From Leptolyngbyaceae cyanobacterium (lineage in GTDB: Bacteria > Cyanobacteriota > Cyanobacteriia > Phormidesmidales > Phormidesmidaceae): 64,000 nucleotides of DNA. The translations under genes were made by a program, and so were the position numbers. Of this stretch, positions 3,970 through 58,179 are shown piece after piece. The stretch covers positions 38,312 through 102,311 of the forward strand of contig CBDHHL010000014.1 in the NCBI GenBank assembly GCA_965263355.1, read 5' to 3'. The notes beneath the pieces were generated by a model. It had not been told where the DNA came from and did no database searches. It worked only from the letters and a program-made list of their open reading frames with translations. Position 1 is the first letter of the stretch, and every line of letters begins with the position of its first letter.

Positions 3970-4014
3970 TTGTATTGGTTCGCTACTCCTGAATGTTGTC
4001 TCTCTTTTAAGAGC

Positions 4015-4509
4015 ATGAAGAAATTTCTTTCACTTATTCCGTTAGCTTGTTTAGGCATTGCGTATGCCGCATCAAATGCCAGAGCTGCAGTAATAACACA
4101 AGCGACGGCTACCTTCGATTGCTATTACGTTGGATTTGACACTGTTGGGTCTTTAGAGATCAGAACCGACTATCCACTGGGCCACATCGCCCGCGCAGAA
4201 GCAATTGTTAATTTCAAATTCTTTGATGATCCGCCTGTCAATATTTCAATCGGAGACGAAAGTTCAACTGTCTTTTTCCGTCGAAACTATGTCAGTTTAG
4301 ATATCCCCCTCGAAGGTGACGAGCCACTAGATAGAGCACAGGAAGCAGAGCTTGTTTATTCTCGTATATCTGGCATTGGCCGTGATGATCTTGGATTCCC
4401 AACAGTCTATCAAGATATCCCTCTAACTCCATTTGGCTATGTCGGTGGTGTTGTCGAAAAATGCCATGAATTAGGCCAATTACCCAAAGCAAAAAATAAG
4501 TGTTCGTAG
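4015..4509 (+). CDS. Secreted hypothetical protein
   Basis: Signal peptide MKKFLSLIPLACLGIAYAASNARA; ATG 4015 is the likelier start than 3970. Confidence 0.55.
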   Translation: MKKFLSLIPLACLGIAYAASNARAAVITQATATFDCYYVGFDTVGSLEIRTDYPLGHIARAEAIVNFKFFDDPPVNISIGDESSTVFFRRNYVSLDIPLEGDEPLDRAQEAELVYSRISGIGRDDLGFPTVYQDIPLTPFGYVGGVVEKCHELGQLPKAKNKCS

Positions 4510-4517
4510 GTGGAATC

Positions 4518-5708
4518 ATGAAGAAGAGATATTTTTTAAGCGCGATCGCTTTATTAGGCTTAGGTGCTCCGGTTGCAGTGAGTCAGGTTTGCGACCAATT
4601 TACATTGACTGGGCCAAACTCAGGGGTTCAAGTGTTGGGTGACCTATGCCCTGATGGGTCCATCCAAAATGGACAAGTATTGAAGCCAGACGGCTCTAAC
4701 ATGGCAGCTGGTGAGACCATTACTTACACCGGCCCTGGTGGAGTGGCTAGTACATCAACTCATGATACGACGCCCAGCCTGCCAAGGCATTGGGAAGAGC
4801 TTGCAGGCTTCCCGCCCCCGTCAGTATCTGAGCTTTCGTTTGGAACGCCAACTCATGATCAGATTATTGGCCATGGGGATCTGAATGAATCCGTTTTCGG
4901 TGAGACCATCTTTTTTAGAAAAGACAATGTTCTTTTCGCTCAAATCCTTGAAGATGTAGTTCTTCCTCAGCCCACTGGGGGTCTTACTGACGGCGTTTAC
5001 GTTGTCAACGATATCGGCCATGGCAGTATCGCGGCTTTTTTCAATGGCGCGCTATCCTCAGATACCCAGATTAAGGGTTTTGGAGGTGAGTTCAGTGACC
5101 TGATCTCAACCTGGACCCCTAGTTCTGGTAGCCTGACGTATCACGAATTAGGAGTTACCAGCAATAAGTGGATTGCAAATTCAGATACTACGCAATCACT
5201 AGGAACTGTCCTTCGAAAGAATGGCAGAGAAGTAAACTCAATTGACCTTGATGCAATCGGATTTGTCGGCTCAGACTTTTATCTTTTTTCTGAGTCTGAT
5301 AAATACTTGGTTGTAGTTGATGACAACTACAATGTTGAGCGCATCTCGACGATTCCAGGCAAGTACTTTAATGGCCCTGGTACATTCACGGCCATCATTC
5401 AAGGTGACTTTGATTCTGACGGTCAAGCAAACGATTTTGCATCTGTGTTCAGAATCACCACTAGTGGCAACTCAAAGTACAGGTTTGAGATGTTCGAATA
5501 TGATTTATCCTCTAATTCGTATTCGAATATTGCAGACATCACAACTGACCTACTGTCAGGTGCCCCCCATCCTGAAGATTCACTGTCGGGCTATGGCAAT
5601 AGCATTGCTTTGTCCCGTCGCCGCAATGACGGTAACCAGCGGATGTACTACTGGAAAGTGGATGCCGTTGGTGGTAGCGTCTACTCAAGAAACTATCCAA
5701 CGAACTAA
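4518..5708 (+). CDS. Secreted beta-rich protein
   Basis: Signal peptide MKKRYFLSAIALLGLGAPVAVS after GGTGGA RBS; contains a GDFDSDG FG-GAP-like motif. Confidence 0.55.
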   Translation: MKKRYFLSAIALLGLGAPVAVSQVCDQFTLTGPNSGVQVLGDLCPDGSIQNGQVLKPDGSNMAAGETITYTGPGGVASTSTHDTTPSLPRHWEELAGFPPPSVSELSFGTPTHDQIIGHGDLNESVFGETIFFRKDNVLFAQILEDVVLPQPTGGLTDGVYVVNDIGHGSIAAFFNGALSSDTQIKGFGGEFSDLISTWTPSSGSLTYHELGVTSNKWIANSDTTQSLGTVLRKNGREVNSIDLDAIGFVGSDFYLFSESDKYLVVVDDNYNVERISTIPGKYFNGPGTFTAIIQGDFDSDGQANDFASVFRITTSGNSKYRFEMFEYDLSSNSYSNIADITTDLLSGAPHPEDSLSGYGNSIALSRRRNDGNQRMYYWKVDAVGGSVYSRNYPTN

Positions 5709-5711
5709 ATA

Positions 5712-6905
5712 ATGATTTTCAAAGCCTACATCGGGCTTTTTGCTTTGTTGTCTACACTCTGCAATCCGTGGGGCACAGACGACGAAGCAATTTTTTTATG
5801 GCCCAAACTTGTAATTCTGTTCTTGATTGCTGCATTAAATCAGTATTCAATCACTAAAGCTAACTCTCGAATTATCTGGCACTGGATAATCGGCTGGTTC
5901 CCCTGGTTGGCATGTGCATCAATTTCAACTTGGTTCGCGATAGTGCCTCATTACAGTGTCCTTGGTTACTACGGAAAAGCTTGCGGGCTTCTTTGGTGGA
6001 TAACCGTGGCTGTGTTTTTTTTGTTTAACAGACTAATCCTTAAAGAACGACCCGAACTATTCCAAGCTCAACTAACGGGTTTCCATATTGGAGGGGTAAT
6101 TAATGCAGCCGCTGGCCTCACTCAATGGGTACTTCACTTTTTTGGCATCGGGTTTGAACAGTATCCCATGCATGGGCTGTTCGGAAACTTTGGCGCATAT
6201 GCCGGGTTTATGCTGATGTGCTGCGCCGTTGCTGCTCAGTACAAAGCCAATAAATGGCTATTGGTTCTTTATACGATTGCCACACTGAATACTGGCGTGA
6301 GAATAGCCATGCTGGGGGCCGTTATTTGCAACTTGGTAGCTATTGGCTGGAAGCGAAGTATCCCCATAGTGCTATCGGCACTGGTCTTTATTGGACTTGT
6401 TACAAACAATAAGCAAGTTGGGGAGACAGCATCGCCCCATACTCCAGTGATGGCGCAGATCAGACGGATCAGTTCAAATCGAACCTACTATTGGGCTAGG
6501 GCATTCAGATATGCTCAGCGATCGCCTTTGATTGGCTACGGGTTCAATGGCTTGAATCTTCAAAAAGCGTTTCGTCAATGCCGCGAAGTGGGCATACTTC
6601 AATATTCGCGGTGGTCGTATCAATGCTCGGACGGCGCTTTCCCTGATGAAGATACTAAGCATTCGTATAATATTTGGCTCGACAGGCTAATAGAAACAGG
6701 CTTCCTAGGCTTGCTAGCTTATGGCTGGCTATGGGCTTGGTTGCTCTGGACTATTCGCGGTAGGGTGCTTTTGGTGTGGTCTATTTTTTTGCTGTGGTCT
6801 ATTTTTTGGTACGACGCAGCCGCATTTAGTTGGATAATATTTTGGATTTTTAGCAATGGCGAATCTTTCAGACGTTCCAAACGAACGGCAAGAACTAGCC
6901 CTTAA
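5712..6905 (+). CDS. O-antigen ligase-like (Wzy_C) polytopic membrane glycosyltransferase
   Basis: Many TM helices, GLFGN, R-x-x-x-W...SPLIGYG and YNIWLDRLIETGFLGL motifs. Confidence 0.75.
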   Translation: MIFKAYIGLFALLSTLCNPWGTDDEAIFLWPKLVILFLIAALNQYSITKANSRIIWHWIIGWFPWLACASISTWFAIVPHYSVLGYYGKACGLLWWITVAVFFLFNRLILKERPELFQAQLTGFHIGGVINAAAGLTQWVLHFFGIGFEQYPMHGLFGNFGAYAGFMLMCCAVAAQYKANKWLLVLYTIATLNTGVRIAMLGAVICNLVAIGWKRSIPIVLSALVFIGLVTNNKQVGETASPHTPVMAQIRRISSNRTYYWARAFRYAQRSPLIGYGFNGLNLQKAFRQCREVGILQYSRWSYQCSDGAFPDEDTKHSYNIWLDRLIETGFLGLLAYGWLWAWLLWTIRGRVLLVWSIFLLWSIFWYDAAAFSWIIFWIFSNGESFRRSKRTARTSP

Positions 6906-21085: not shown

Positions 21086-22456
21086 CTACCCCACCGTGTA
21101 GACGGATGGGGTTTCAACACTCCCCATCTTGCGGTGAGATTTCTGTCTCTTCGCCTGTCCCAGTTGCTTCATTCCTCCCGTATGTTTACGGTTTTCAGAA
21201 GTAGAGCTGAGACATCCAAGACTAACGAGGCTGAAATTTCCTAACCCCGGTTGATTGTTGGTCGCAACGTTGTACATCACCACAACTGAGCCACGGTCAC
21301 GGGGGATCTCAAAGCCGCATCCATCGCAGATGTGATAGCGGTTACTGAGTTCTGCCCAGTGTTTATGCACCTTGCCGCAGTTGGGGCAGCGTTGCGAAGG
21401 TTTGACCTTTTTGGTCGGCAAAAACAGGACTAAGCCCCCTTTTTGCTCAATCTTGTACGTCACCATTTTGTTGATGGTGCCAAAGCCAACAGATAGGATC
21501 TCGCGGTTGAGTCCAGCTTTCTGGCGTTTCCGCTTACTCCCCTTTTTGGCCTTTCGGGTCATCCCTTTAGTGTTGAGCTTTTCGGTAACGCCGATGTCAT
21601 AACGACTTGCAATGTCTGACGTTACCTTGTGCTGCCAGTCCTTACGCTGACGGGCAGCCTTAGCCTTCAACTTAGCCTCACGTCGATTCGCCTTCTTCCA
21701 TCGACGTGAGGCTTTTTGACCCTTTACAGGGTTACGCTTTCGGCGTTTAGTCTTAGCGACTTTCCGAACTTTTTTATTTGTCTCTCTACTAAACCTGGGA
21801 TTCTCCAGCTCGGCAAACTCCGAACCGTCAAACAGGGTCAGGGCTGTTTCTGTTCCCAGATCATAGGCAACCATCGACTCATACGCCAAGTCAGACTCAG
21901 ATCCAAATTGAACGACCGGATCTGCAACGTTGACCGTAATCGAGGCATACCAGGCTTTTTGACCAGGCTTGTAAATAATGGTGCATGTTGTCGGCACACC
22001 CCATTGCTTAGCCTTGCCGCGCATCTTGATCTTGATGCCCAACAGCTCTAAATACCCGTGTGTACCTTCAGTGTGGGCAATCCAGCCAGACTTAGCCGGA
22101 TAGGTCCACCCTGAGTACTTACGAATCGACTTGAACTTAGGCAAACCGCCTAAGCCTTTGAAAAACCGCTGATAAGCAAAATCAACACGCTTAAGTGTTG
22201 CCTGGATAGCTTGAGAGCCTAACGCCTTGAACTCTGGCCATTCAACCTTGAAGTCTGGCAAACAGTTCTGTTGAGCAAAGTAGTCAACAGAGATCCCCCA
22301 TTGCTTCCACATTGTTTTTCGCTCAGACACGGCAGCATTGTACAGATAGCAATGCAATCGACGTGCATCAAACAAAGCCCGCTCTTGAGCCTTGTTTGGA
22401 TACAGTCGAAATGTCTGCCGCCTTACTGCCATAAATAAATAGAGCGCAAAAAACAA
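21086..22456 (-). CDS. tnpB: RNA-guided endonuclease TnpB
   Basis: FRLYPN N-terminus, RuvC YDLG / TEKL / RD and CPNC-CDGC zinc finger; likely start ATG 22432. Confidence 0.92.
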   Translation of the reverse strand: MFFALYLFMAVRRQTFRLYPNKAQERALFDARRLHCYLYNAAVSERKTMWKQWGISVDYFAQQNCLPDFKVEWPEFKALGSQAIQATLKRVDFAYQRFFKGLGGLPKFKSIRKYSGWTYPAKSGWIAHTEGTHGYLELLGIKIKMRGKAKQWGVPTTCTIIYKPGQKAWYASITVNVADPVVQFGSESDLAYESMVAYDLGTETALTLFDGSEFAELENPRFSRETNKKVRKVAKTKRRKRNPVKGQKASRRWKKANRREAKLKAKAARQRKDWQHKVTSDIASRYDIGVTEKLNTKGMTRKAKKGSKRKRQKAGLNREILSVGFGTINKMVTYKIEQKGGLVLFLPTKKVKPSQRCPNCGKVHKHWAELSNRYHICDGCGFEIPRDRGSVVVMYNVATNNQPGLGNFSLVSLGCLSSTSENRKHTGGMKQLGQAKRQKSHRKMGSVETPSVYTVG

Positions 22457-22530
22457 AATCAGTTGATAGTTGCTGATACAGCTAAGTTAACATAGAATCA
22501 GGGGAATGAGTAGAAATCAGTAAAAGTGCT

Positions 22531-22950
22531 ATGAAATCTGGCTCACATGTCGTTTATGACATTCACCTGCATATTGTGTTTATCACTAAATATCGTCGCC
22601 AAGTGCTTACACAGCCCATGCTTGAGAGGATGTCTGAGGTTGTTAAGCGTGTCTTGGAGTCTAACCGGTGTGAGCTATCAGAGCTGAACGGGGAACCGGA
22701 TCATGTCCATCTGCTGGTGGACATGCACCCGGATAACAACATTTCTAATCTGGTCTCATCCCTGAAATCGGCTACCAGCCGCATTCTTAGAAAGGATTTC
22801 AAGGATGAAATAGACAAAGTTTATTGGGGCAAGGCCAAGCTGTGGCACGATGCAAAATGCATTGTCAGCTGTGGCGGTGCCCCCCTAGAAAAAGTCAAAC
22901 AGTACATTCAGGAACAAAGCGGCGGGAGAGTGCCTAGCTCTACTTCGTGA
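22531..22950 (+). CDS. tnpA: IS200/IS605 Y1 (HUH) transposase
   Basis: HIVFITKYRR, DHVHLL HUH motif and YIQEQ catalytic Tyr. Confidence 0.95.
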   Translation: MKSGSHVVYDIHLHIVFITKYRRQVLTQPMLERMSEVVKRVLESNRCELSELNGEPDHVHLLVDMHPDNNISNLVSSLKSATSRILRKDFKDEIDKVYWGKAKLWHDAKCIVSCGGAPLEKVKQYIQEQSGGRVPSSTS

Positions 22951-24987: not shown

Positions 24988-26269
24988 CCTGCTTCATAAA
25001 ACCTATACAAACCTAGACATCTAGGATTAGTTGTTTACTAAACGCTTCAACTACAGGCGTCGGCGCTACTGTATCCACGTTTCTTAAAGAACTCAAGCCG
25101 AGTCCTATTTTCAGAATATTTAGAGCTGCATTAAAATCTCTGTCCAGCTTTGAACCGCAATTTTTACAGTCAAATATTCTATCCTTTAGAGTTAAATCTT
25201 CTTTTTTCCATCCGCATTGAGAACATGTTTTTGAACTTGGTTCCCAGCGCGAAATAAAGACCAATTCAGACTCATAAAGCTTGCATTTGTATTCAAGTTG
25301 GCGTCTGAATTCATGCCACCCCATCAAACTAATGGCACCTGCTAATTTATGATTTGCCATCATGCCTTTAATATTCAAATCTTCTAGGCATATGACAGAA
25401 AAGTTTTTAGCTAAATAGGTTGTTGATTTATGCAAAAAATCAAGCCTTATGCACTTTGCTTTATAGTGCAATTTTTGAATTTTTTGCATAGCTTTTTGCC
25501 ATCGGGTGGAACCTTTTGTTTTGTTCCTGGCTACGTATTGAAGCTTAGCTATTTTTGCCTTGATCCTTTTGTATTCAGTTATTGGAGCTTCTAAGATTTC
25601 ACCATTAGACAATGTTCCAAAAGTTTTTAGCCCTAAGTCGATCCCTACAGCAAGCTTGGTTTTTGCTTGTTGAATAGGTTCAACTTCTAGCCGAAAACTA
25701 ACAAACCATTTTGAACCGTCCCTAGAGATAGTTGCATTTTTAGGCTTAAACCCATTTGGCAGTTCTTCAAACGTTTTTACCCAACCAATGCGTGGTAACT
25801 TTATGGCTTTTTGCTGGCATGAAATACTGCCATCTAAGGTGAACGTATCACGGCATTTTCCTTTTTTCTTGAATTTTGGTGGACCTGAAATTTTCTTGAA
25901 ACACCTATCCCATGAGACACGTAAAGATCGTATAGCGTTTTGATGAGCAGCTTTACTGCATTCGTAATACCAAGGATTAGCCTTTTTGATTTCTCTACAA
26001 TGCCATTTATTTAGGTCAATTGCAGACGGGAATTTAACTTTTTGATCTGACTCTCCCAGCGACTTAGCTAATCTGTTGATATCTAAAATTAACTTTGTAT
26101 GGGCTAAAGCATGGTTCCAAGCATGACGAGCAATGCCACAATGCTTTTTGAAAGCTGTGATTTGCTTGTTGTTTGGTTTTAATTCAGTCTTAAATCCAAT
26201 CAGCATTGTGAACATTCTGTATAGATTTGTCTAGCTTTTCTCAGGTTTTAGGCTTCTAGAATTTCCTCC
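24988..26269 (-). mobile_element. Non-autonomous IS607-like tnpB element
   Basis: GG at both junctions; short TGT(A/C)TAG-type repeats at both ends in inverted arrangement; no transposase gene. Confidence 0.7.
25013..26215 (-). CDS. tnpB: RNA-guided endonuclease TnpB (IS607-type)
   Basis: GFKTELKPNNKQ, GIDLGLK, LEDL, CSQC/CKNC and DRDFNAA motifs. Confidence 0.92.
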   Translation of the reverse strand: MFTMLIGFKTELKPNNKQITAFKKHCGIARHAWNHALAHTKLILDINRLAKSLGESDQKVKFPSAIDLNKWHCREIKKANPWYYECSKAAHQNAIRSLRVSWDRCFKKISGPPKFKKKGKCRDTFTLDGSISCQQKAIKLPRIGWVKTFEELPNGFKPKNATISRDGSKWFVSFRLEVEPIQQAKTKLAVGIDLGLKTFGTLSNGEILEAPITEYKRIKAKIAKLQYVARNKTKGSTRWQKAMQKIQKLHYKAKCIRLDFLHKSTTYLAKNFSVICLEDLNIKGMMANHKLAGAISLMGWHEFRRQLEYKCKLYESELVFISRWEPSSKTCSQCGWKKEDLTLKDRIFDCKNCGSKLDRDFNAALNILKIGLGLSSLRNVDTVAPTPVVEAFSKQLILDV

Positions 26270-46585: not shown

Positions 46586-48406
46586 ATGACTAGGCAGAGA
46601 ATAATTAGGACCAGGGCAAGTCAATCAGTAATCAGATCTTTTTTGGTTGACTCTAATTCGCCAGCGATAGCCAATAGCAATGTTACTCATGGCGTTTTTC
46701 ATGTTGATACTAGACTAGGGCCTGCAACCATTCAGCTGCCTGCTAACCCTCGTAATTTTCAGAGATGGGAGATCAGTGACGATTATTGGGCGCTAAGCGA
46801 TACAAATACTCTCACTATTGACCTAAACGGAAAGCAGCTAAACAGAGAAAACCCGCCAAACGGAAATTATATATTGACAGAGCCAGGGACCATTGAATTC
46901 CTACACTACGATCAAACCCTCGACAGTTGGCTTACTAATGAAGTTTGGATTCAGGGCGGTTCTTCAGCGCCAAATGCAGCAGACATCACAATTCCTGTAA
47001 TCGCTGGACTCGCAACCAACGGCTCATGGGAAGTTGCGACGAACACCGGTCGAATCCTGGTCACTTATACTGATAACGTTGAAATTGATGTCGCAACCAT
47101 CACACCAATAGAATTTGTTGCGCCTACTGAGCTAGGCTTAGCGGCTAATGCAACGATCAGCCTAACCCCTGACACTACAGGCTTGACGAATGGGACAAGC
47201 GTTGTTGTGCCCTATGATTTTACTTTGCCAGGTGCGCTTACTTTCGTCGACATGTACACGGTCGAATCATTGAGCGTTCAAGCCGCTGGGACCAATGTGA
47301 TCTCAGACACTAGCGGCAATTCAATTTTGCCTGGAACTGCTATGGGCAATGTCGATATTGACCTAAGAGCAACCATAACGGCAACGTTTGACAGCGACGG
47401 GGCCACAGCATTCAACTTTAATACTGCTCTGGCTGATGCTGACACAAGACTTCCTGTCTACACGTTTAGCGATGGCCAGCCAGCTCAGACAATAGAAGAC
47501 TTGAGCGGAATTGTTTTAGCGACTGGAACGCAGACAATTACGGCAAGTCTACCCGCAACGGCGACGGAAGTTGACATCCAAGATGCAAGATTGACCAACC
47601 TTGCTGGGCTTGAGAATTGGATAGCAAAAGAAAAAATCGTTCTGGATGACAATTTGTTGATAAACCTCCCGAGCGGCCTTTTTATCGGAGCAAACTCGCT
47701 AGAAAATGTTAGTGTCACTAATAACAATATCAGTGTTATCCCCCCAGAAATTGCTAACGCGACAGCGCTAAGATCACTGACTTTAACTAGTAACTCCATT
47801 ACAGCACTCCCCACTGAAATTTCTGGGCTGACAAATCTTGTTACGTTTATTGTCAACTCTAATCAGTTGACTGCATTGCCGCCAGAAATTAGCAGCTTGA
47901 CTTCAATGCGAACATTTCAGGCCAATCAAAACGATATTACTAATGCAGGCCTACCCGCTCAATTATGGGCATTGCCCGCGTTGCAAACACTGAGTTTGAC
48001 AGGCAACCAGCTAACGACTATCCCTGACGCAATCTCAAGCTTAGCAGGAACATTAAGGCGATTATTCCTAGGCAACAATCAGATTGTCTCAGCAAATATT
48101 ACAAACAATATGGCACTGCTGACCAGTCTTACAAATCTAGGTCTCGAAGGCAATTCATTAACCAGCTTGCCTGCTTCTATCGCTGGGATCTCAAGCTTGA
48201 TCAGTCTGAATTTATACAATCAAGGGTCGACAATGACGAGCGCCGTTGTAGATCAATTCTTGGCGGCATTAGTCGCGGGGCAACCGTGGGATGCATCAGC
48301 AACCATTAATATTGGAGTCAGCTCACCAGCTCCAACAGCGGCTGGCTTAGCCGACAAGACAACGCTAGAGACAGGAACGCCAGCGCACACCGTAACAACT
48401 AACTAG
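46586..48406 (+). CDS. Fibre-like protein with C-terminal leucine-rich repeats
   Basis: VDTRLGPATIQLP...LTIDLNG fibre motif; about 9 LxxLxLxxNxLxxLP repeats. Confidence 0.8.
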   Translation: MTRQRIIRTRASQSVIRSFLVDSNSPAIANSNVTHGVFHVDTRLGPATIQLPANPRNFQRWEISDDYWALSDTNTLTIDLNGKQLNRENPPNGNYILTEPGTIEFLHYDQTLDSWLTNEVWIQGGSSAPNAADITIPVIAGLATNGSWEVATNTGRILVTYTDNVEIDVATITPIEFVAPTELGLAANATISLTPDTTGLTNGTSVVVPYDFTLPGALTFVDMYTVESLSVQAAGTNVISDTSGNSILPGTAMGNVDIDLRATITATFDSDGATAFNFNTALADADTRLPVYTFSDGQPAQTIEDLSGIVLATGTQTITASLPATATEVDIQDARLTNLAGLENWIAKEKIVLDDNLLINLPSGLFIGANSLENVSVTNNNISVIPPEIANATALRSLTLTSNSITALPTEISGLTNLVTFIVNSNQLTALPPEISSLTSMRTFQANQNDITNAGLPAQLWALPALQTLSLTGNQLTTIPDAISSLAGTLRRLFLGNNQIVSANITNNMALLTSLTNLGLEGNSLTSLPASIAGISSLISLNLYNQGSTMTSAVVDQFLAALVAGQPWDASATINIGVSSPAPTAAGLADKTTLETGTPAHTVTTN

Positions 48407-51554: not shown

Positions 51555-51628
51555 TCTTCTGAAAACCAGGGTGTGTTATTAGAGAGAGAGACCATGGATT
51601 TATATTGAACTAAAAATGGTTTAATTTG

Positions 51629-52372
51629 ATGCCTGATGCAGCATTAGCAAGAGCTGGATTTGAATTCAATCCTGATCCCGTCATCTTTGGGGATTCACAA
51701 CGCAAAATAGTCCTTGCTAATCCAGCGGCGGCTAGACTTTTTGAGTACGAAAATCCAACGGCAATGGTTGGGTTGAAAGTTTACAGCTTGGTTCCCGAAT
51801 CTCTTATATCAGAAAGCGCTCATGACAGAATGTATGACGCGTTTCTACGTGGTCAGAGGACCCGTGATATGGGTTCTGAAGCTCCGCTTTTTGGCAAAAC
51901 ACGAATGGGACGACAGATCCCTATCTGGCTACGACTATTTATTGTCAATCACGAAGGTGAAACTTATGTTGGCGAAGTCGTTCGAGATCGTACAGAATAT
52001 TTACGCCAAGAAGAACAAATAAAGGAGCAAGAGCAACAGGAGCGAGATTTGATCTTGCAATTGGAGAAATCCAATAAAGAACTGAAAGCGTCCAACAAGG
52101 ATATGCAAGTTCAATTGCGGCAATCTGAGCTACAAGAACTCGTCGTTAAGTGGCTGATCTATGCGGGTGTTTTTTTCTATCTGACCCCATTTTTATTAAG
52201 TATTTTTAGGCGAGTGCCAACGGAACTGATGTCTTTTGGCAGAGACGCTACGATCCTAGTGATCGGGGCGCTCGTTAATGCGACCGGTGCAGCTGTTGGT
52301 ATCGTATCAAAGGCTAAGGACATGGCTAATGAAAAGTCAATAGATAGCAAAACTCCTAATGCGAAACGATAG
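51629..52372 (+). CDS. PAS domain, coiled coil and two-TM protein
   Basis: IVLANPAAARLFEY...LVP...H...G.T..G..IPI...VVRDRTE PAS/PAC pattern; C-terminal TM pair. Confidence 0.8.
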   Translation: MPDAALARAGFEFNPDPVIFGDSQRKIVLANPAAARLFEYENPTAMVGLKVYSLVPESLISESAHDRMYDAFLRGQRTRDMGSEAPLFGKTRMGRQIPIWLRLFIVNHEGETYVGEVVRDRTEYLRQEEQIKEQEQQERDLILQLEKSNKELKASNKDMQVQLRQSELQELVVKWLIYAGVFFYLTPFLLSIFRRVPTELMSFGRDATILVIGALVNATGAAVGIVSKAKDMANEKSIDSKTPNAKR

Positions 52373-52994
52373 AGCATTGTTTCCATTCCTTAGAACACAA
52401 TTGGGTCGGGCGTTCATAATCGTATCGATTGGGTTATTTTTTGGCCTAGTTCTTTTCTGGACGAGTCACACTCAGTTTAGCGAGGCTTGCTTGCAAATCA
52501 AAACGCCTGGTTCTATAGCGCAGGGGATAGCCCGAGGTCTTATATATCAGCAAAGTATTGAGGACGTAATAACCTCCATGGGCGATAGGCTGAACGCTCA
52601 ATGGGTGGGGTCATTTTTGTACGACGAGGACCAACGTCGGCGCTTTAGTTTTGCGATCGCACGGATCGGAGTGCCAGTATCAGCAACTTACGGGTGGCTG
52701 GACATCCAGCAAGAGGATATATATCTAGAGCAACTTGATTACCATAAGTTAGGCCAGTGCTGGGTCAAGCCTACCAAGGATCTCCCAGAAGGCCTATTGA
52801 AGCAGCAACTTGAGCCCAATAACATCCAACTAACTATCTCCTGTCCTATATTGGCTCAGAATGGCGATACATTTGGATATGTAGCCTTTGGCTTCGATAG
52901 AGTCATGGCAAACAAAGAAACTGTTGCGGAGTCTATTAGGGCGAGCCCTATCTTCGCTTTTGATGCAAGTAATGCAGGCTTTTTCGGGAATTAA
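52359..52994 (+). CDS. Membrane-anchored GAF-like protein
   Basis: N-terminal TM; ISCPILAQNGDTFGYVAFGF GAF-type strands. Confidence 0.55.
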   Translation: MRNDRALFPFLRTQLGRAFIIVSIGLFFGLVLFWTSHTQFSEACLQIKTPGSIAQGIARGLIYQQSIEDVITSMGDRLNAQWVGSFLYDEDQRRRFSFAIARIGVPVSATYGWLDIQQEDIYLEQLDYHKLGQCWVKPTKDLPEGLLKQQLEPNNIQLTISCPILAQNGDTFGYVAFGFDRVMANKETVAESIRASPIFAFDASNAGFFGN

Positions 52995-52997
52995 TCA

Positions 52998-54155
52998 ATG
53001 AAATACATCATCGAGACATCAGATCAATTTCAAAATGCACTCAAAGTTGCTGAGGCAAGCGATCGTATCCTGCTAAAGTCTGGCGTTTATCAACATGAAG
53101 AATACAACACTTCATGGGAAACACGGACCCGTGGAAATGCTTTTTTTGCTAGTGGGCTAAAAGGAACAGCCGAAGCTCCAATTAGGATAATGCCGTTTGG
53201 GGATGGCCCTGTGACTATACTTTCTGACGTGAATGGTTTAGCGATAAAAGATTCTAAGTATATTATTATCGAGGGCATAGAGTTTATAGGGCCGAACTCA
53301 AAGCTGAGTACTGAGCAAGCTTTAGAGGTCTGGTGGAACGAAAACCCTATAATGATAACGGGCAGAGGAATTGCCTTAAATCGTTGCAGCAATATCGATA
53401 TAACAAGATGCCGAGTGCATCATTTCCCAGGGGCGGGAATATCCAGCAAGCACGGTTACGATATCAGCATTTACGATAACGCTATCTATAACAATTGCTG
53501 GTTCTCAATATCAGGATCGCATGGTATCGCGAATAGCGAGCCTAAAGGGCCTAGCGGATCTTCAATGAAGATCTACCGTAACCTGGTTTTTGGGAACCAA
53601 TGCTGTGTTATATCAAGGGTATTTTCCAAGGGTTATGTCACTTTGGCGTTAGACGAAGGCAACGGTATTCACTTTCAGAATGATGAAAAGATTTATAGGG
53701 GCGGGCTGCTGATAAAAGAGAACATTAGCGTGTTTAACGGGAAGGCAGGAATAGGCCTTAACAGAGTGTCGACACATCAGCTAGACTCAGCCATCATAAA
53801 AGATAATCTGCTAGCCGGTAACTGCATAACAACAGACTCAGGACAGCTCAGTGAGCGAGAAAGTCAAGTCTCTTTTATCCGGAACATATTGGGCGGTGAA
53901 CCCTACGTTAAGAGCATAGGGTTCTCTACAAGCGATTACGCTAGCAATATAGAGGCACCCGAGTTCGCTAGTCTATCGGATTTACTTCCTCCCGAAGGGG
54001 CAGAACTTAGAGAGACTTATACTAATATCTTGTCTCAGTTTAGTATGTTCGTTGCGCCCTGCGACCAGGAGATAAACTTGGAAAGCATGATAAAAAAGAT
54101 AAAAGATACTCAGCCAGCGGATATGGCGCATATAGAGTTTATAGAGCATTGCTAA
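52998..54155 (+). CDS. Right-handed parallel beta-helix (pectin-lyase-like) protein
   Basis: D.ILLKSG.Y, GTAEAPI.I, YIIIEGIEF, GI/N-ladder repeats and DEGNGI. Confidence 0.75.
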   Translation: MKYIIETSDQFQNALKVAEASDRILLKSGVYQHEEYNTSWETRTRGNAFFASGLKGTAEAPIRIMPFGDGPVTILSDVNGLAIKDSKYIIIEGIEFIGPNSKLSTEQALEVWWNENPIMITGRGIALNRCSNIDITRCRVHHFPGAGISSKHGYDISIYDNAIYNNCWFSISGSHGIANSEPKGPSGSSMKIYRNLVFGNQCCVISRVFSKGYVTLALDEGNGIHFQNDEKIYRGGLLIKENISVFNGKAGIGLNRVSTHQLDSAIIKDNLLAGNCITTDSGQLSERESQVSFIRNILGGEPYVKSIGFSTSDYASNIEAPEFASLSDLLPPEGAELRETYTNILSQFSMFVAPCDQEINLESMIKKIKDTQPADMAHIEFIEHC

Positions 54156-54342
54156 GTTTCAGTCCCTTAACAGGGATTAAAGCTTTAGCAGCCTTCATCT
54201 AAGGCCATGGTTGCGAAGCACTTAGAGAAGTTTCAGTCCCTGTTAAGGGATTAAAGCTTTAGCAGCTAGGGTTCTCTACAAGCGATTACGCTAGCAATAT
54301 CAAGAGTTTCAGTCCCTGTTAAGGGATTAAAGCTTTAGCAGC
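54156..54342 (-). CRISPR. CRISPR mini-array: three 37-nt repeats and two spacers (37 and 39 nt)
   Basis: Repeats at 54156-54192, 54230-54266 and 54306-54342. Minus-strand consensus GCTGCTAAAGCTTTAATCCCTTAACAGGGACTGAAAC has an internal hairpin and a GAAAC end. Confidence 0.92.
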
Positions 54343-54662
54343 TGCATAAGCTGCATCCCTTTAGCAGCAAGGCTTTATGAGCGATTCTGGCAAAGCTCAG
54401 AAAATGGCAATCCTGCCAAAGCTTTAATCTCTGTTTTTCAAGGTTGTTTTTTAGCATCGCTTAGCTTTGCCAAAAAAAGATGAGACTGTTCGCCATAGAT
54501 CCGGCGAATCTATAAGGGCCTTACGGACTCCTTTTGCTCCTATCTTGCCTTTCGGCTGGTGTTTGCCAGTTTCCCAGCAAAAGATGCCCATAGCCCCCTA
54601 AAGAGCCTTAGCGCTGAAGCCATCCAACAACGTTTCCGCTGCCTTGTCGCCCAAACTGCGAT
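54343..54662 (-). ncRNA. Putative leader/tracrRNA-like RNA containing an anti-repeat
   Basis: 54413-54432 matches the repeat at 18/20 in inverted orientation; leftward promoter at 54698-54669; no long ORF. Confidence 0.5.
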
Positions 54663-54668
54663 GTCCTT

Positions 54669-54698
54669 ATATTAGCGTGCTATGATTTTGTACGTCAA
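54669..54698. promoter_or_regulatory. Overlapping divergent promoters
   Basis: Minus strand TTGACG-N18-TAATAT; plus strand TGC-TATGAT extended -10 at 54678-54686. Confidence 0.55.
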
Positions 54699-54714
54699 GC
54701 ATTTTTTAATATAA

Positions 54715-54891
54715 ATGGGGAAAGAGAATAGAGAAGGCAGGATTTACGCCCGCATCAAGCAAAGTCGCAAACAAAAGCTAGAGCAATATTGTAAGCTTTG
54801 GAATATATCGATCGCTGACCTATTGGAACGCTTTATTGATATGCTGCCAGAACTCCCGAAAATAGACGCACAAAACAATGAAGACAATTAA
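54715..54891 (+). CDS. Ribbon-helix-helix regulator, 58 aa, not in the ORF track
   Basis: MGKENREGRIYARIKQSRKQKLEQYCKLWNISIADLLERFIDMLP...; overlaps the nuclease start. Confidence 0.75.
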   Translation: MGKENREGRIYARIKQSRKQKLEQYCKLWNISIADLLERFIDMLPELPKIDAQNNEDN

Positions 54892-56611
54892 AGTAAAAGT
54901 TCAGCCAACTCCGGAGACGCTAATTAAATACGAGAAAATTTGCAGAGAACTTGAATGGCTATGGAACTATGTAAGGGCCGTAGCCTTACATAATCATTGC
55001 CTTGAATGGTATGCGTGGGCCGAGGGGAAAGGCGCTAACTTGTCAGGCTGCATTAAAACGCCGCTACGCTTTTCAAAGAATGGCGGATGGATTGGAGCAG
55101 CTTGTCAGATTGCTAAAGGAGGGCCATATTTTAAGAAGTCAGATAAAGCTCCTTTGATTCACTATGACGATGGCAAAACGAAACAAGGCTATGAATTAGT
55201 GGCTGGGGATAAGCCATATGAGCCAATAAAGCCAGAGCGTCATAGATATCGCGAAGTCTCTTATTCCAGTAAAGGTACCTCAATAACCCGTTCCAGTAAA
55301 AGCACCTCAATAACCCGCGAGCTAAAAGGAAAAGGTTGGGGCCTAGACAATATGGCGTTACTAAATGCGTCACGAAGTTCTCAGGGTCTTGATGAATTAA
55401 CTTGCCATAGCGATTTTGTTGGAGGGCTACTAGCTGACTTTGAAGTTGCCTGGGATGCGTATTTAAACACAAAACTGCCTGCCAGAAAGCAGCCAAAGTA
55501 TAAGGACGGCAAGCAACGTAAAATTAGCACGTTGAACAATAATCAAAAAACTATCCCGTTCAAAAAAGGACAATTCAACGGTCAAGGCTTAGTTTTAGAG
55601 CCGTGCGATCGCAGCTATAAAAAAAGGCTTGAAGGCTACGTAACAAAAACTTATAAGTTGACATTAAAGCCGAGCGGCTTCTATTTATGCTTAATTGCTC
55701 AAAGTGAAGCGGAAGAAGAGAATAGATTAAAACTCAAACAGCAAGGAAAAGCTTTAAGTTCTATCAAGAAAAAAATTCTTGATAGCATTAAAGGGAAGAA
55801 AGAACAAACTAAGGCATTAGCTAACAGTGAAGAATATCAAGCGGCATTAGCCAAGAAAAAGTCAATAGAGAATGAGTTGCCATACTTGCTAATAGAAGAC
55901 TCAAAATGCGCTAAACGAACCGGGCATATGGCGGGCATTGACCCTGGGATTAAGGCAATTGTAGCGACTGACGAAGGTCATTTATTTAATCCTAACGAAA
56001 GCCGAGAACGCATACAAAATCATATTGAAAAGCTGCAATCTAAGCTTGACATTATGACTGAAAAAAATGATAAGCGGCTAGACCAAATATGGAAGCGTGG
56101 GCAGCGTGAAGCCACTAATAACGAGCAAAAACTTAGAGATAAAATATCCAGGCTGCATGAACGAGCTGCTAATAGTTCAAACGCGTTTAATCATAAGTTA
56201 TCAACCAGGTTAGCAAGAACTTATGATGTCATCGCCTGGGAGGCTACGGCGTTAACTAACATGGGGAGACAGACAACGCCTAAATTAGCTGAAGATGGAA
56301 GTTGTTACGAGCAAAACGGCAGAGCAGCCAAGGCAGGATTGAACAGATCTTTGAAAACAGCTTGCATGGGTGACCTTAGAGCTAAGACAAAATCTAAATT
56401 AAAGGAAGCCGGGAAAACGTATGCAGAAACCGAAGCTAGATACTCCTCCCAACGCTGTCATTGTTGTGGGGGAAAAGGCATTAGGCCGACTCAAGACACG
56501 TTTATTTGTTTGAATGAACAATGTGATTTATTCAATGAGAAACAAAACGCAGATACTAACGCTGCTAAAAATCACAAGAACAATGGCTTGAAGATGCTTA
56601 AGGTTGGTTGA
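54878..56611 (+). CDS. CRISPR-associated TnpB-derived type V effector (Cas12/C2c8-like), 577 aa
   Basis: RuvC-I GIDPG, RuvC-II AWE, CHCC...C...C zinc finger and RuvC-III NADTNAAKN; adjacent to the array, no tnpA. Confidence 0.8.
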   Translation: MKTIKVKVQPTPETLIKYEKICRELEWLWNYVRAVALHNHCLEWYAWAEGKGANLSGCIKTPLRFSKNGGWIGAACQIAKGGPYFKKSDKAPLIHYDDGKTKQGYELVAGDKPYEPIKPERHRYREVSYSSKGTSITRSSKSTSITRELKGKGWGLDNMALLNASRSSQGLDELTCHSDFVGGLLADFEVAWDAYLNTKLPARKQPKYKDGKQRKISTLNNNQKTIPFKKGQFNGQGLVLEPCDRSYKKRLEGYVTKTYKLTLKPSGFYLCLIAQSEAEEENRLKLKQQGKALSSIKKKILDSIKGKKEQTKALANSEEYQAALAKKKSIENELPYLLIEDSKCAKRTGHMAGIDPGIKAIVATDEGHLFNPNESRERIQNHIEKLQSKLDIMTEKNDKRLDQIWKRGQREATNNEQKLRDKISRLHERAANSSNAFNHKLSTRLARTYDVIAWEATALTNMGRQTTPKLAEDGSCYEQNGRAAKAGLNRSLKTACMGDLRAKTKSKLKEAGKTYAETEARYSSQRCHCCGGKGIRPTQDTFICLNEQCDLFNEKQNADTNAAKNHKNNGLKMLKVG

Positions 56612-56700
56612 GCATCAGCGGAAATGCTATGATTGGCAGCAGCTGACAATATTGGAACTATTGGCAGCTGCTTAACCACAAACTTAACGGAAGTAAGTAC

Positions 56701-57426
56701 ATGGCTAATACAGATATTACCGCATTCAATTGCGATGGAGAATTAGTAGTTGATTCTAGGCTGATTGCAGAACGGCTAGGAATTGATCATTCTAATTTCT
56801 TAGAAACTATCGAAAAGCACAGAACCATTGCTACGCAGGCGTTTGGAATTTTCAGGTTTGAAACGGAGAAATTAAATGGGCCGGGACGACGCCCCAAATA
56901 CTGCCTACTCAACGAAGATCAAGCGACCTTCGTTATGACATTGAGTCGCAATACGCCAGATGTCGTAAAATGCAAAGTCGAACTAATACAAGCATTTTCA
57001 AAAGCTAAAGCTGCGCTCAAAGCTTTAGTTCAGCCTACTGAAAATTTAGCAATTGAAGCATGGGTTCTTGACCATCCTCAGCAATGGGAAGAGCACTTTT
57101 TCCCAGAATGGAGGGCTGAAGCTGAGCGATTAACCGGATGGCGCTGGAGCTACCGTTGTATGTCAGGCTTCATCAATAAAGCTGTTTACGATTGGATGCC
57201 TAAAGCTGTTCTAGACAGGCTGAATGAAGTAAACCCGCAAGATACCAAAGGACGTAGAAAGTCAAAGCAACATCAGTACCTGACAGATGACGCTGATACT
57301 CAGGTCTTAAAAGACTATATTCGCACGTCATACGAACTAATGATTGTATGTGGAGAAAAGACAGAGTTTCTTCGACTTATCCGCAATCGACATACAAAAG
57401 TAATTCAGCCCTGGTTATTTGCCTGA
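56701..57426 (+). CDS. Rha-family N-terminal plus P63C-like C-terminal phage regulatory protein
   Basis: VDSRLIAE...LNEDQATFVM...K.ELI.AF and W...F...VYD.MP...HQYLT motifs. Confidence 0.75.
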   Translation: MANTDITAFNCDGELVVDSRLIAERLGIDHSNFLETIEKHRTIATQAFGIFRFETEKLNGPGRRPKYCLLNEDQATFVMTLSRNTPDVVKCKVELIQAFSKAKAALKALVQPTENLAIEAWVLDHPQQWEEHFFPEWRAEAERLTGWRWSYRCMSGFINKAVYDWMPKAVLDRLNEVNPQDTKGRRKSKQHQYLTDDADTQVLKDYIRTSYELMIVCGEKTEFLRLIRNRHTKVIQPWLFA

Positions 57427-57454
57427 TTAAAAGAAACTCTCAACAATAAGGAAA

Positions 57455-57688
57455 ATGAATTTTTTCAACAACAAAAAAGAAACCCGACACTCTGCCGTGT
57501 CAAAACAACATTGTGACGACATGGCAAAAAGATACGGCTGGGAGCAACCTGAAGAAGACAAAGATCGCTACGAAAAAAGAAATTGTTCTATCTTGCCGAT
57601 AGACTGTATTTTCATAGGCGATTGCCAGTTCCCAGTCAGTTCAATGGATCAAAGTCAAGGCGATATACACAACGGAGAGGAGGAGTAA
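57455..57688 (+). CDS. Hypothetical protein
   Basis: AAGGA RBS; 77 aa. Confidence 0.55.
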   Translation: MNFFNNKKETRHSAVSKQHCDDMAKRYGWEQPEEDKDRYEKRNCSILPIDCIFIGDCQFPVSSMDQSQGDIHNGEEE

Positions 57689-57690
57689 TC

Positions 57691-58179
57691 ATGAACAAGC
57701 CAGATTTAATTGTTTGCATCCCTGACATGGATCGCGTTCCTGACGAGCATTACAACGAAGCTCAGGACATGACTTGTATTTTAGTAGACTACAGCGGCAA
57801 TTCAAAAATTAAAAACGGACGACGCATGGGGACTGAAAAGAAAATAGACCCTGACAGCGCAGATCCTAGATTTCCCGGCGCAGTTACTCATCAACGTTTG
57901 GGGCCATGGCTAATTGATGATGAGTATGAAGAATACATTCCTGATATTCCTATGGTCAATGATGACTATGTAGAATATATTCCTGCTATTCCTACTCACG
58001 CATACAATGCAGTCTATACGTTTAAGTTTAGCTATGCCCCATTGCCAGATGAAGAAAACCCATGGGTAGAAATTGAGCGGACGCAAGACTTTAGCAATCT
58101 TCCAAGGCAAGTTTTGCTTGATATGGGCCTAACAGAAGAACAAATTGATTCGGGCGTGTTAGAGCAATACAAACTTTAG
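57691..58179 (+). CDS. Hypothetical protein with an internal 14-aa duplication
   Basis: GGAGGAG RBS before ATG 57691; DEYEEYIPDIP and DDYVEYIPAIP. Confidence 0.6.
   Translation: MNKPDLIVCIPDMDRVPDEHYNEAQDMTCILVDYSGNSKIKNGRRMGTEKKIDPDSADPRFPGAVTHQRLGPWLIDDEYEEYIPDIPMVNDDYVEYIPAIPTHAYNAVYTFKFSYAPLPDEENPWVEIERTQDFSNLPRQVLLDMGLTEEQIDSGVLEQYKL

Follow-up and report, generated by a model that had tools for sequence, protein, structure and literature searches.

Composition of the locus

The DNA analyzed here, hereafter the window, is a stretch of 64,000 nucleotides (nt), about 63% of a contig some 102 kb long, and it encodes a large terminase, a portal protein, a major head protein and a tape measure protein, which identifies it as tailed-phage DNA. 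Judged from its sequence, this phage carries a complete predicted type V-P (Cas12p) interference module, with a TnpB-derived effector gene, a putative gene for a trans-activating RNA (tracrRNA) and a short CRISPR array. The array starts at the final base of the stop codon of a tail-spike-type beta-helix gene, which is the last gene of the tail and structural block and the source gene of the spacers considered in this work. The leader-proximal spacer of the array (spacer 2) nearly matches this neighboring gene, and the three differences lie next to the PAM (protospacer-adjacent motif) position.

The effector matched chain 9jfs_A with an E value of 2e-111 and a bit score of 376.5, in an alignment spanning query residues 1-56 and 49-570, it contains a TnpB/Cas12f-type RuvC domain and a zinc ribbon (Pfam PF07282 and PF01385), and it scored 111.7 bits against the guided_TnpB model NF040570, whose cut-off is 100. 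Residues D355, E455 and D559 are invariant in the 14 sequences of the family alignment, leaving an intact RuvC acidic triad; their assignment to the three RuvC motifs, made from the usual motif patterns, is our assumption. The effector also keeps Trp44, Tyr45 and Trp47, and its Cys76 aligns with Cys127, a thioredoxin contact of Cas12p; the positions aligned with Trp102 and Phe105 of Cas12p are not conserved, and about 44 residues lying between the two aligned blocks of 9jfs are absent.

Cas12p ("Cas12 hacker", type V-P) has been described as a phage-associated effector of 500-700 amino acids that recognizes a GTN PAM (GTA > GTG > GTT > GTC), is active with a 17-nt guide, is dependent on and activated by host thioredoxin, and uses a tracrRNA in which the GUUU at positions 7-10 forms a pseudoknot with the AAAC that ends the repeat (bioRxiv 10.1101/2025.01.20.633832; here and below, statements on published systems refer to passages of the papers cited). 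The window resembles Cas12p (PDB 9jfs, 9jg3) in the homology over residues 1-570, the phage location, the GTN-type flanks of the targets and a tracrRNA-like gene with a GUUU:AAAC motif and an anti-repeat. It differs from the published Cas12p in lacking the 44 residues mentioned above and in having the tracr-plus-array module upstream of the effector and divergent from it instead of downstream.

The same inversion separates the window from its own relatives. The 14-member family alignment retrieved 11 metagenome loci and 6 IMG/VR loci, three of the latter being the same contigs. Of the seven metagenome loci whose sequence continues for at least 600 bp past the gene, six carry a CRISPR array on its strand, 400-500 bp downstream. 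Their repeats are strongly dissimilar from locus to locus, but all end in GAAAC.

Upstream of the effector, the tracrRNA-like gene begins with a 5' box (54647-54661) that forms a hairpin with GUUUG in its loop, and after its anti-repeat (54413-54432) come a small hairpin and a T run (54405-54418), which resemble a terminator. Read on the minus strand (54432-54413), the anti-repeat pairs at 19 of 20 positions with positions 2-21 of the guide-sense repeat, whereas 60 shuffles gave 17 pairs at most; this ungapped helix search rose clearly above the shuffles for the window only, among the loci tested, and RNAduplex with free bulges was too noisy for placing anti-repeats in the relatives. The promoter and the 15-nt hairpin box with its GUUUG loop are kept in all nine metagenome loci that have DNA after the gene, and 20 of the 28 pairs predicted by the consensus fold of the region in nine loci show compensatory changes. 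The GUUUG loop and the AAAC end of the repeat fit the published Cas12p pseudoknot motif, so that the predicted RNA has, by sequence and covariation only, both the anti-repeat and the UUUG:AAAC pseudoknot of a Cas12p tracrRNA. A search of Rfam with positions 52000-58000 returned nothing relevant.

In each of the 37-nt repeats, a tail of 8 nt (...ACUGAAAC) comes after a hairpin. The minus-strand promoter and the 19/20 anti-repeat pairing point to minus-strand reading of the array, and the agreement of the natural target flanks with the published PAM (see below) confirms this orientation independently. Since repeats 2 and 3 are identical and repeat 1 is different, the leader-side repeat was most likely copied when spacer 2 was taken up, which makes spacer 2 the newest one. 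The promoter, the anti-repeat and the repeat identity thus bear out a preliminary description of this DNA, which had proposed a minus-strand array with its self-like spacer next to the leader. The hairpin loop of repeat 1 (54167-54178) is the exact reverse complement of those of the other two repeats (54241-54252 and 54317-54328), with the stem preserved, and the leader-side loop looks like the product of a template-switch inversion that was later duplicated. Loose ends and joints in the metagenome runs described below suggest that the repeats of the population have the repeat-1 form. A view of repeat 1 as a decayed terminal repeat, considered as evidence of orientation, was rejected because the repeats of the runs resemble it. 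Spacer 1 matched only itself in the window at up to three mismatches, and no match was found in the phage records.

The type I-D setting suggested by the preliminary description did not hold: the array partners the adjoining Cas12p homologue, and a scan of 67 open reading frames (ORFs) of the window revealed no further cas gene. A type I-D effector was rejected on the same grounds (no Cas10d, Cas3, Cas7, Cas5 or Cas6 among these ORFs, and an array linked to cas12p in the relatives), and the scan of the 67 ORFs likewise returned no member of the Cas1, Cas2, Cas4, Cas6 or thioredoxin families. Type V-U2 was considered as well, since the best profile matches of the effector are Cas12u2/C2c8, as for the effector of cyanophage vB_AphaS-CL131. 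The window resembles the type V-U2 (C2c8) system of CL131 in being a cyanophage-type virus with a TnpB-like effector adjoining an array (PMC6293099). However, the V-U2 model NF038192 matched the C-terminal half only, at 168.9 bits against a cut-off of 350; with the Cas12u2 profile of PADLOC the effector scored 185 bits, against 525.9 bits for the CL131 protein, which was matched over its full length. Because these profiles cover the C-terminal half and remain below the cut-off, the effector was not placed in V-U2 (C2c8/Cas12u2). A further difference is that the passages on CL131 report no kin-directed spacer (PMC6293099).

Table 1. Positions of the features in the window (strand + or -)
Feature	Position	Strand	Remarks
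Right-handed beta-helix gene, 385 amino acids	52998..54155	+	ORF; Pfam Beta_helix E 7e-07
Source stretch of the spacer held by relatives	53894..53926	-	Between repeats in arrays of three runs; GTA flank
Resident near-target of spacer 2	53917..53955	-	36/39; mismatches at guide positions 1, 4 and 5
Flank of the near-target at the PAM position	53956..53958	-	GTG on the minus strand
Repeat 1, leader-distal, 37 nt	54156-54192	-	Loop reverse-complementary to that of repeats 2 and 3
Spacer 1, 37 nt	54193-54229	-	No target found
Repeat 2, 37 nt	54230-54266	-	Identical to repeat 3
Spacer 2, 39 nt	54267-54305	-	Leader-proximal; holds the N-I-K allele of the adjoining gene
Repeat 3, leader-proximal, 37 nt	54306-54342	-	Guide sense ends ...GAAAC
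tracrRNA-like gene (predicted)	54400..54662	-	5' box, anti-repeat, small hairpin, T run
Sigma-70-like promoter	54669..54698	-	TTGACG, 18 nt, TATAAT-like TAATAT; faces the tracrRNA-like gene and the array
ORF of 58 amino acids	54715..54891	+	End overlaps the cas12p start; between divergent promoters
cas12p-like effector, 577 amino acids, TnpB-derived	54878..56611	+	PDB 9jfs E 2e-111; PF07282, PF01385

The leader-proximal spacer and the alleles of the beta-helix gene

Spacer 2 is identical to 53917-53950 of the beta-helix gene across 34 contiguous nt and agrees with it at 36 of 39 nt overall, with all three mismatches within the last five nt (CAAGA in the spacer, AGAGG in the resident gene). In the reading frame of the gene, the resident sequence AAT ATA GAG G (N-I-E) stands against AAT ATC AAG A (N-I-K) in the spacer. 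Both observations had been made in the preliminary description; realignment and short-query BLAST confirmed the match, and the frame was confirmed in the 385-residue ORF. The 34-nt match has an E value of 2.4e-14 (blastn-short against about 300 kb of DNA) and is therefore not due to chance. The guide of spacer 2 is complementary to the plus strand, which is the coding strand of the gene, and the mismatched plus-strand bases 53955, 53952 and 53951 correspond to guide positions 1, 4 and 5. The PAM-proximal placement of the mismatches and the GTG 5' flank on the minus strand, both previously noted, were also verified. By our own arithmetic, random placement would put all three mismatches in the first five guide positions with a probability of 10/9139 (about 0.001), a figure weakened by the unusual divergence of the resident gene just downstream, in codons 319-341.

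The bases held by the spacer occur in nature. The beta-helix protein of the window has an identical database entry, encoded on a contig of 102,311 bp. The six other members of the 90% cluster of the beta-helix protein are 93-96% identical to the window protein, and all six have N-I-K where the latter has N-I-E, followed by Thr, Ala (n = 4) or Ile; Glu319 of the window allele is unique among the seven sequences. We also compared positions 52900-56700 with contigs of three metagenome runs of one study (X1, X2 and X3), which hold 50-61% of the sampled words of the locus. The bases of spacer 2 result from 53951 A>C together with 53952 G>A, and these two changes accounted for 57.9 of a depth of 110 in X1, for 198.4 of 198.4 in X2 and for 76.4 of 76.4 in X3. 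At these two bases, the form matching the spacer is thus the common one and that of the carrier the rare one. Accordingly, for two of the three mismatched bases, the ATC AAG (Asn-Ile-Lys) of the spacer is a real, coding-compatible allele in nature, as the preliminary description had supposed for the whole difference; the six relatives and the three runs carry it, and the third base was not seen in the DNA of relatives.

Repeat-flanked spacers, one of them from the same beta-helix gene, were present in independent Logan contigs of the three runs. This second spacer aligns to 53894-53926; the joints 54192->53894 and 53926->54156 were found in all three runs, at depths of 12.3, 87.7 and 52.9. A common variant, 53928 A>G, would turn the GTA flank of this site into GCA, and a Phe/Leu polymorphism at codon 309 falls within the first six guide positions. 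The two polymorphisms suggest that the relatives target the allele of the window while being themselves protected, and there appears to be reciprocal targeting within 62 bp of one gene. This 62-bp stretch has 6 variable residues out of 22, against 33 of 363 elsewhere in the protein (one-sided Fisher p = 0.016). At least five other spacers lie between the same repeats in the arrays of the runs, and these five did not match the window at up to three mismatches.

The relatives seem to carry the cassette too, since five of the six beta-helix relatives lie on contigs equal in size to a contig encoding a Cas12p relative. No contig listed in the three runs skips the cassette.

Natural targets and relatives of the Cas12p family

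Seven natural protospacers were available for the family, namely the site of the window itself, the population spacer at 53894-53926, four targets in the phage contig L009 of spacers from locus L015, and one in the phage contig L019. Their 5' flanks are GTG, GTA, GTG, ATA, GTG, GTA and TTG, with T at -2 and a purine at -1 in all seven and GTR in five, in agreement with the GTN PAM of Cas12p. Locus L015 is cellular (flanked by ArgJ, GatB, Obg and similar genes), and its four spacers are directed against L009, a phage with portal and tail genes that is also in IMG/VR, indicating that the Cas12p family does interfere with phages. One of the four spacers (L015 12503-12535) is identical at 33/33 nt to L009 11445-11477, flanked by GTG, and its target is the cas12p gene of the phage; the host system thus targets the phage copy of the same system.

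The L019 contig, an IMG/VR phage contig unrelated to the window and with 93-96% DNA identity to L009, provides a second example of the pattern found in the window. It has a three-repeat array after cas12p, and its spacer 5398-5433 is identical at 36/36 nt to the cas12p genes of L009 and L008. The same spacer matches the cas12p gene of L019 itself at 35/36 nt; guide position 6 is the mismatched one and changes Asp to Asn, in a codon that specifies Asp in all seven other relatives. The region 5778-6528 of L009 / L021 has, next to a second array built from another repeat (5778-6246), a second tracr-type box at 6528, which lies on the opposite strand. This second array of L009, which is also present in L019, has no second effector gene adjoining it.

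Searches for near relatives of the window phage gave little. Single-protein queries with the effector and the beta-helix protein returned no IMG/VR relative, the six IMG/VR loci having been found with the alignment of the effector family; the spacer core and the repeat pattern were absent from IMG/VR, and megablast with 52900-56700 found no phage record. Neither the deposited phage records nor IMG/VR thus contain a near relative of the window phage. Among 301 genomes sampled from the phylum to which the metagenome-assembled genome (MAG) G001 belongs, one gave a weak C-terminal match to the effector and none a full-length match; MAGs G001 and G002 had no match. A full-length relative with 32.8% identity is the 668-residue "transposase" (4001-6007) of Cylindrospermopsis virus CrV-01T (MH636380). 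Upstream of that gene, on its strand, are two copies of the promoter with the tracr 5' box (2799 and 3372), and no array was found from about 1.5 kb upstream to 0.5 kb downstream of the gene.

Within the effector gene of the window, a 27-nt tandem duplication (55264-55317; 93% identity) encodes a 9-residue repeat. This stretch is gapped against 9jfs, which points to a length-variable loop; the run contigs have small deletions at 55269-55285, and the Cas12p relatives span 564-591 residues. The Cas12p relative P0079, on a contig of 97,691 bp, was called at 461 residues starting at about residue 110 of the others, and this gene may be truncated or broken at its 5' end. The ORF of 58 residues preceding the effector gene matched no family, and a comparable small ORF lies upstream in only one of ten relatives (L011); by eye, and as a guess, it resembles a small ribbon-helix-helix regulator. 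Elsewhere, the window carries an IS200/IS605-type pair within 21086-22950, composed of a TnpB of 456 amino acids on the minus strand and an adjoining Y1 transposase (22531-22950), and a second ordinary TnpB of 400 amino acids at 25013-26215. A PAS-domain protein (51626-52372) and a leucine-rich-repeat protein (46586-48406) are encoded inside the tail-fiber block.

A probable conflict between sibling phages and competing explanations

What the sequences show is the anatomy and orientation of the locus, the family to which the effector belongs, a PAM-type flank, a target allele that exists in nature, and a further, independent case. We favor, with moderate confidence, a conflict between sibling phages in which the carrier is spared by its PAM-proximal mismatches. 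According to this explanation, the newest guide would be aimed at the ATC AAG form of the siblings, at two of the three differing positions, and the siblings with this common allele that co-infect or superinfect the cell would be cut. The resident copy keeps a usable GTG PAM, and mismatches at guide positions 1, 4 and 5 would make R-loop formation fail, thus sparing the carrier. The explanation further supposes that the Cas12p system is expressed; none of the sequencing runs listed for the locus was RNA. The preliminary description had also derived the spacer from a related phage and attributed protection to seed mismatches; the allele, the flank and the mismatch positions now agree with that proposal, while the protection itself would follow from the general behavior of type V effectors, for which mismatches in the seed would shield the resident site.

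As the window has no adaptation genes, its spacers were probably supplied in trans, presumably by a Cas1-Cas2(-Cas4) machine of the I-D kind in the host. A preprint on Cas12k elements proposes, in its passages on adaptation, that the I-D adaptation machinery is borrowed by those type V arrays of cyanobacteria whose repeats are 37 nt long and whose PAM is GTN. The same borrowing may apply at this locus, and it would be the sound part of the earlier I-D idea.

Viral mini-arrays directed at siblings have a precedent in the archaeal viruses SPV1 and SPV2, whose own loci are mutated and whose targets lie near the arrays, a proximity that was left unexplained (Medvedeva et al. 2019, PMC6858448). The window shares with SPV1 and SPV2 a very short viral array, spacers against close relatives, a mutated own locus and nearby targets; as a virus-borne mini-array, it has a short array on viral DNA, a spacer matching close relatives and an altered resident locus, and the perfect full-length donor was not seen. 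Unlike those viruses, which have no effector and rely on host type I or III systems, the window phage brings its own Cas12p and a predicted tracrRNA.

Several observations weigh against a conflict between siblings. No perfect 39/39 donor of spacer 2 was seen among the relatives and the runs; the third mismatch (53955) is absent from the differences listed for the three runs, and the translation of the spacer is equalled throughout by none of the six relatives, the nearest of which (P0076) has one Ala/Ser difference. The window beta-helix protein has eight residues unique among the seven sequences, and six of them lie in codons 319-341, so the three mismatches may be the edge of a divergent patch and not dedicated escape changes. 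In six other phage-type loci, no spacer matched the surrounding 20 kb or so, and of the eight spacers known for the lineage, only two have a match in the window, which makes up about 63% of the contig. Finally, the passages of the Cas12p preprint do not report mismatch tolerance (bioRxiv 10.1101/2025.01.20.633832).

The same cutting could also serve a linked killer-and-rescue or homing-like drive, in which selection would favor a cassette that spreads along with the resistant allele beside it. A sibling cut near the cassette would be repaired from the carrier, copying the resistant allele and the array, and tight linkage would prevent recombinants that join the spacer to a sensitive target. 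TnpB, the ancestor of this effector, is reported to promote transposon retention by guided cutting. Free-standing phage homing endonucleases and synthetic cleave-and-rescue drives likewise use a nuclease specific for the allele of a neighboring gene that relatives carry, and polymorphisms at the cut site protect the carrier; in the window, by contrast, the specificity is provided by an RNA guide. Consistent with a drive, target and array are close together, with about 200-260 bp between them for each of two different spacers in the window and about 1.1 kb in L019, and in both phages the carrier has the rare allele. For SPV1 and SPV2, too, such closeness was reported and left unexplained (PMC6858448). 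On the other hand, part of the proximity is an ascertainment effect, only 15-64 kb per phage being searchable, spacer uptake near the cut or near the array could also give it, and no conversion tract was demonstrated. The preliminary description had proposed homing into cassette-free relatives; none was seen among the six relatives or the three runs, leaving homing unsupported, and a homing element with a cassette-free allele as its target was rejected because five of the six relatives carry the cassette and no listed contig skips it. We consider a linked drive rather unlikely for the window. The broader idea that Cas12p mini-arrays act as natural RNA-guided cleave-and-rescue or homing-like drives, in which a spacer aimed at the common allele of a gene beside the array is tightly linked to a resistant, seed-mutated copy of it, and which kill or convert siblings in mixed infections and spread an array-plus-allele block, is speculative and, on balance, unlikely; if true, it would explain why virus-borne arrays target nearby sites, which is unexplained for the archaeal viruses.

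Alternatively, spacer 2 might be a relic of autoimmunity, taken from the replicating DNA of the phage itself, with survival only of a genome that differed already, mutated or recombined next to the PAM, and with no present function. The spacer is identical to the resident gene over 34 nt, a stretch inside which five of the six relatives differ at the protein level; Glu319 is unique to the window, and phage DNA would be the most abundant donor in an infected cell. However, ATC AAG (N-I-K) is common in the same metagenomes, so the guide of spacer 2 is likely to have targets now. In addition, the relatives hold a different spacer against the same 60-bp stretch, and the pattern recurs in L019. These facts argue against a relic, which we regard as quite improbable.

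A host type I-D or type III effector might serve the array, with the neighboring Cas12p not being its partner. The 37-nt repeats with a hairpin and an 8-nt ...ACUGAAAC tail are like those of the cyanobacterial MAG arrays L003 and L004, and GTN is also the I-D PAM in the passages of the preprint on Cas12k elements. Nevertheless, array, tracrRNA-like gene and effector travel together in phage and cellular loci despite very different repeats, the anti-repeat and the pseudoknot motif suit this specific repeat, and no further cas gene lies within 10 kb in the cellular locus L015, all of which makes such a host effector very improbable.

Some small type V effectors act as repressors, and the guide, as a complement of the coding strand, runs antisense to the beta-helix mRNA and has a partial match in the DNA of the gene. 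The suggestion of the preliminary description that such partial pairing lowers the expression of the phage's own gene is nonetheless hardly credible, as the RuvC acidic residues are invariant in a family that cleaves DNA (bioRxiv 10.1101/2025.01.20.633832), the mismatches lie exactly at the start of the R-loop, and a long distance separates the site, located at the gene's 3' end, from the promoter of the gene.

The effector family, phage-borne CRISPR systems and kin-directed mini-arrays are already in print. What the window adds to the Cas12p preprint is a kin-directed spacer with putative self-protection by seed mismatches; a natural target of a Cas12p array combined with such predicted self-protection is new and was seen twice. 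The passages of the preprint (bioRxiv 10.1101/2025.01.20.633832) contain no statement on natural Cas12p spacer targets, and a 2026 review, in its passage on the family, only calls Cas12p potentially aimed at competing phages. The window and L019 now offer a concrete natural target, in each case the siblings' allele of a gene beside the array, with PAM-proximal mismatches in the carrier, which makes the proposed role of Cas12p testable. The conflict known from archaeal virus mini-arrays would thereby extend to bacteriophages with an effector of their own, and the natural pairs of matched and mismatched targets could be used for measuring the seed rules of Cas12p.

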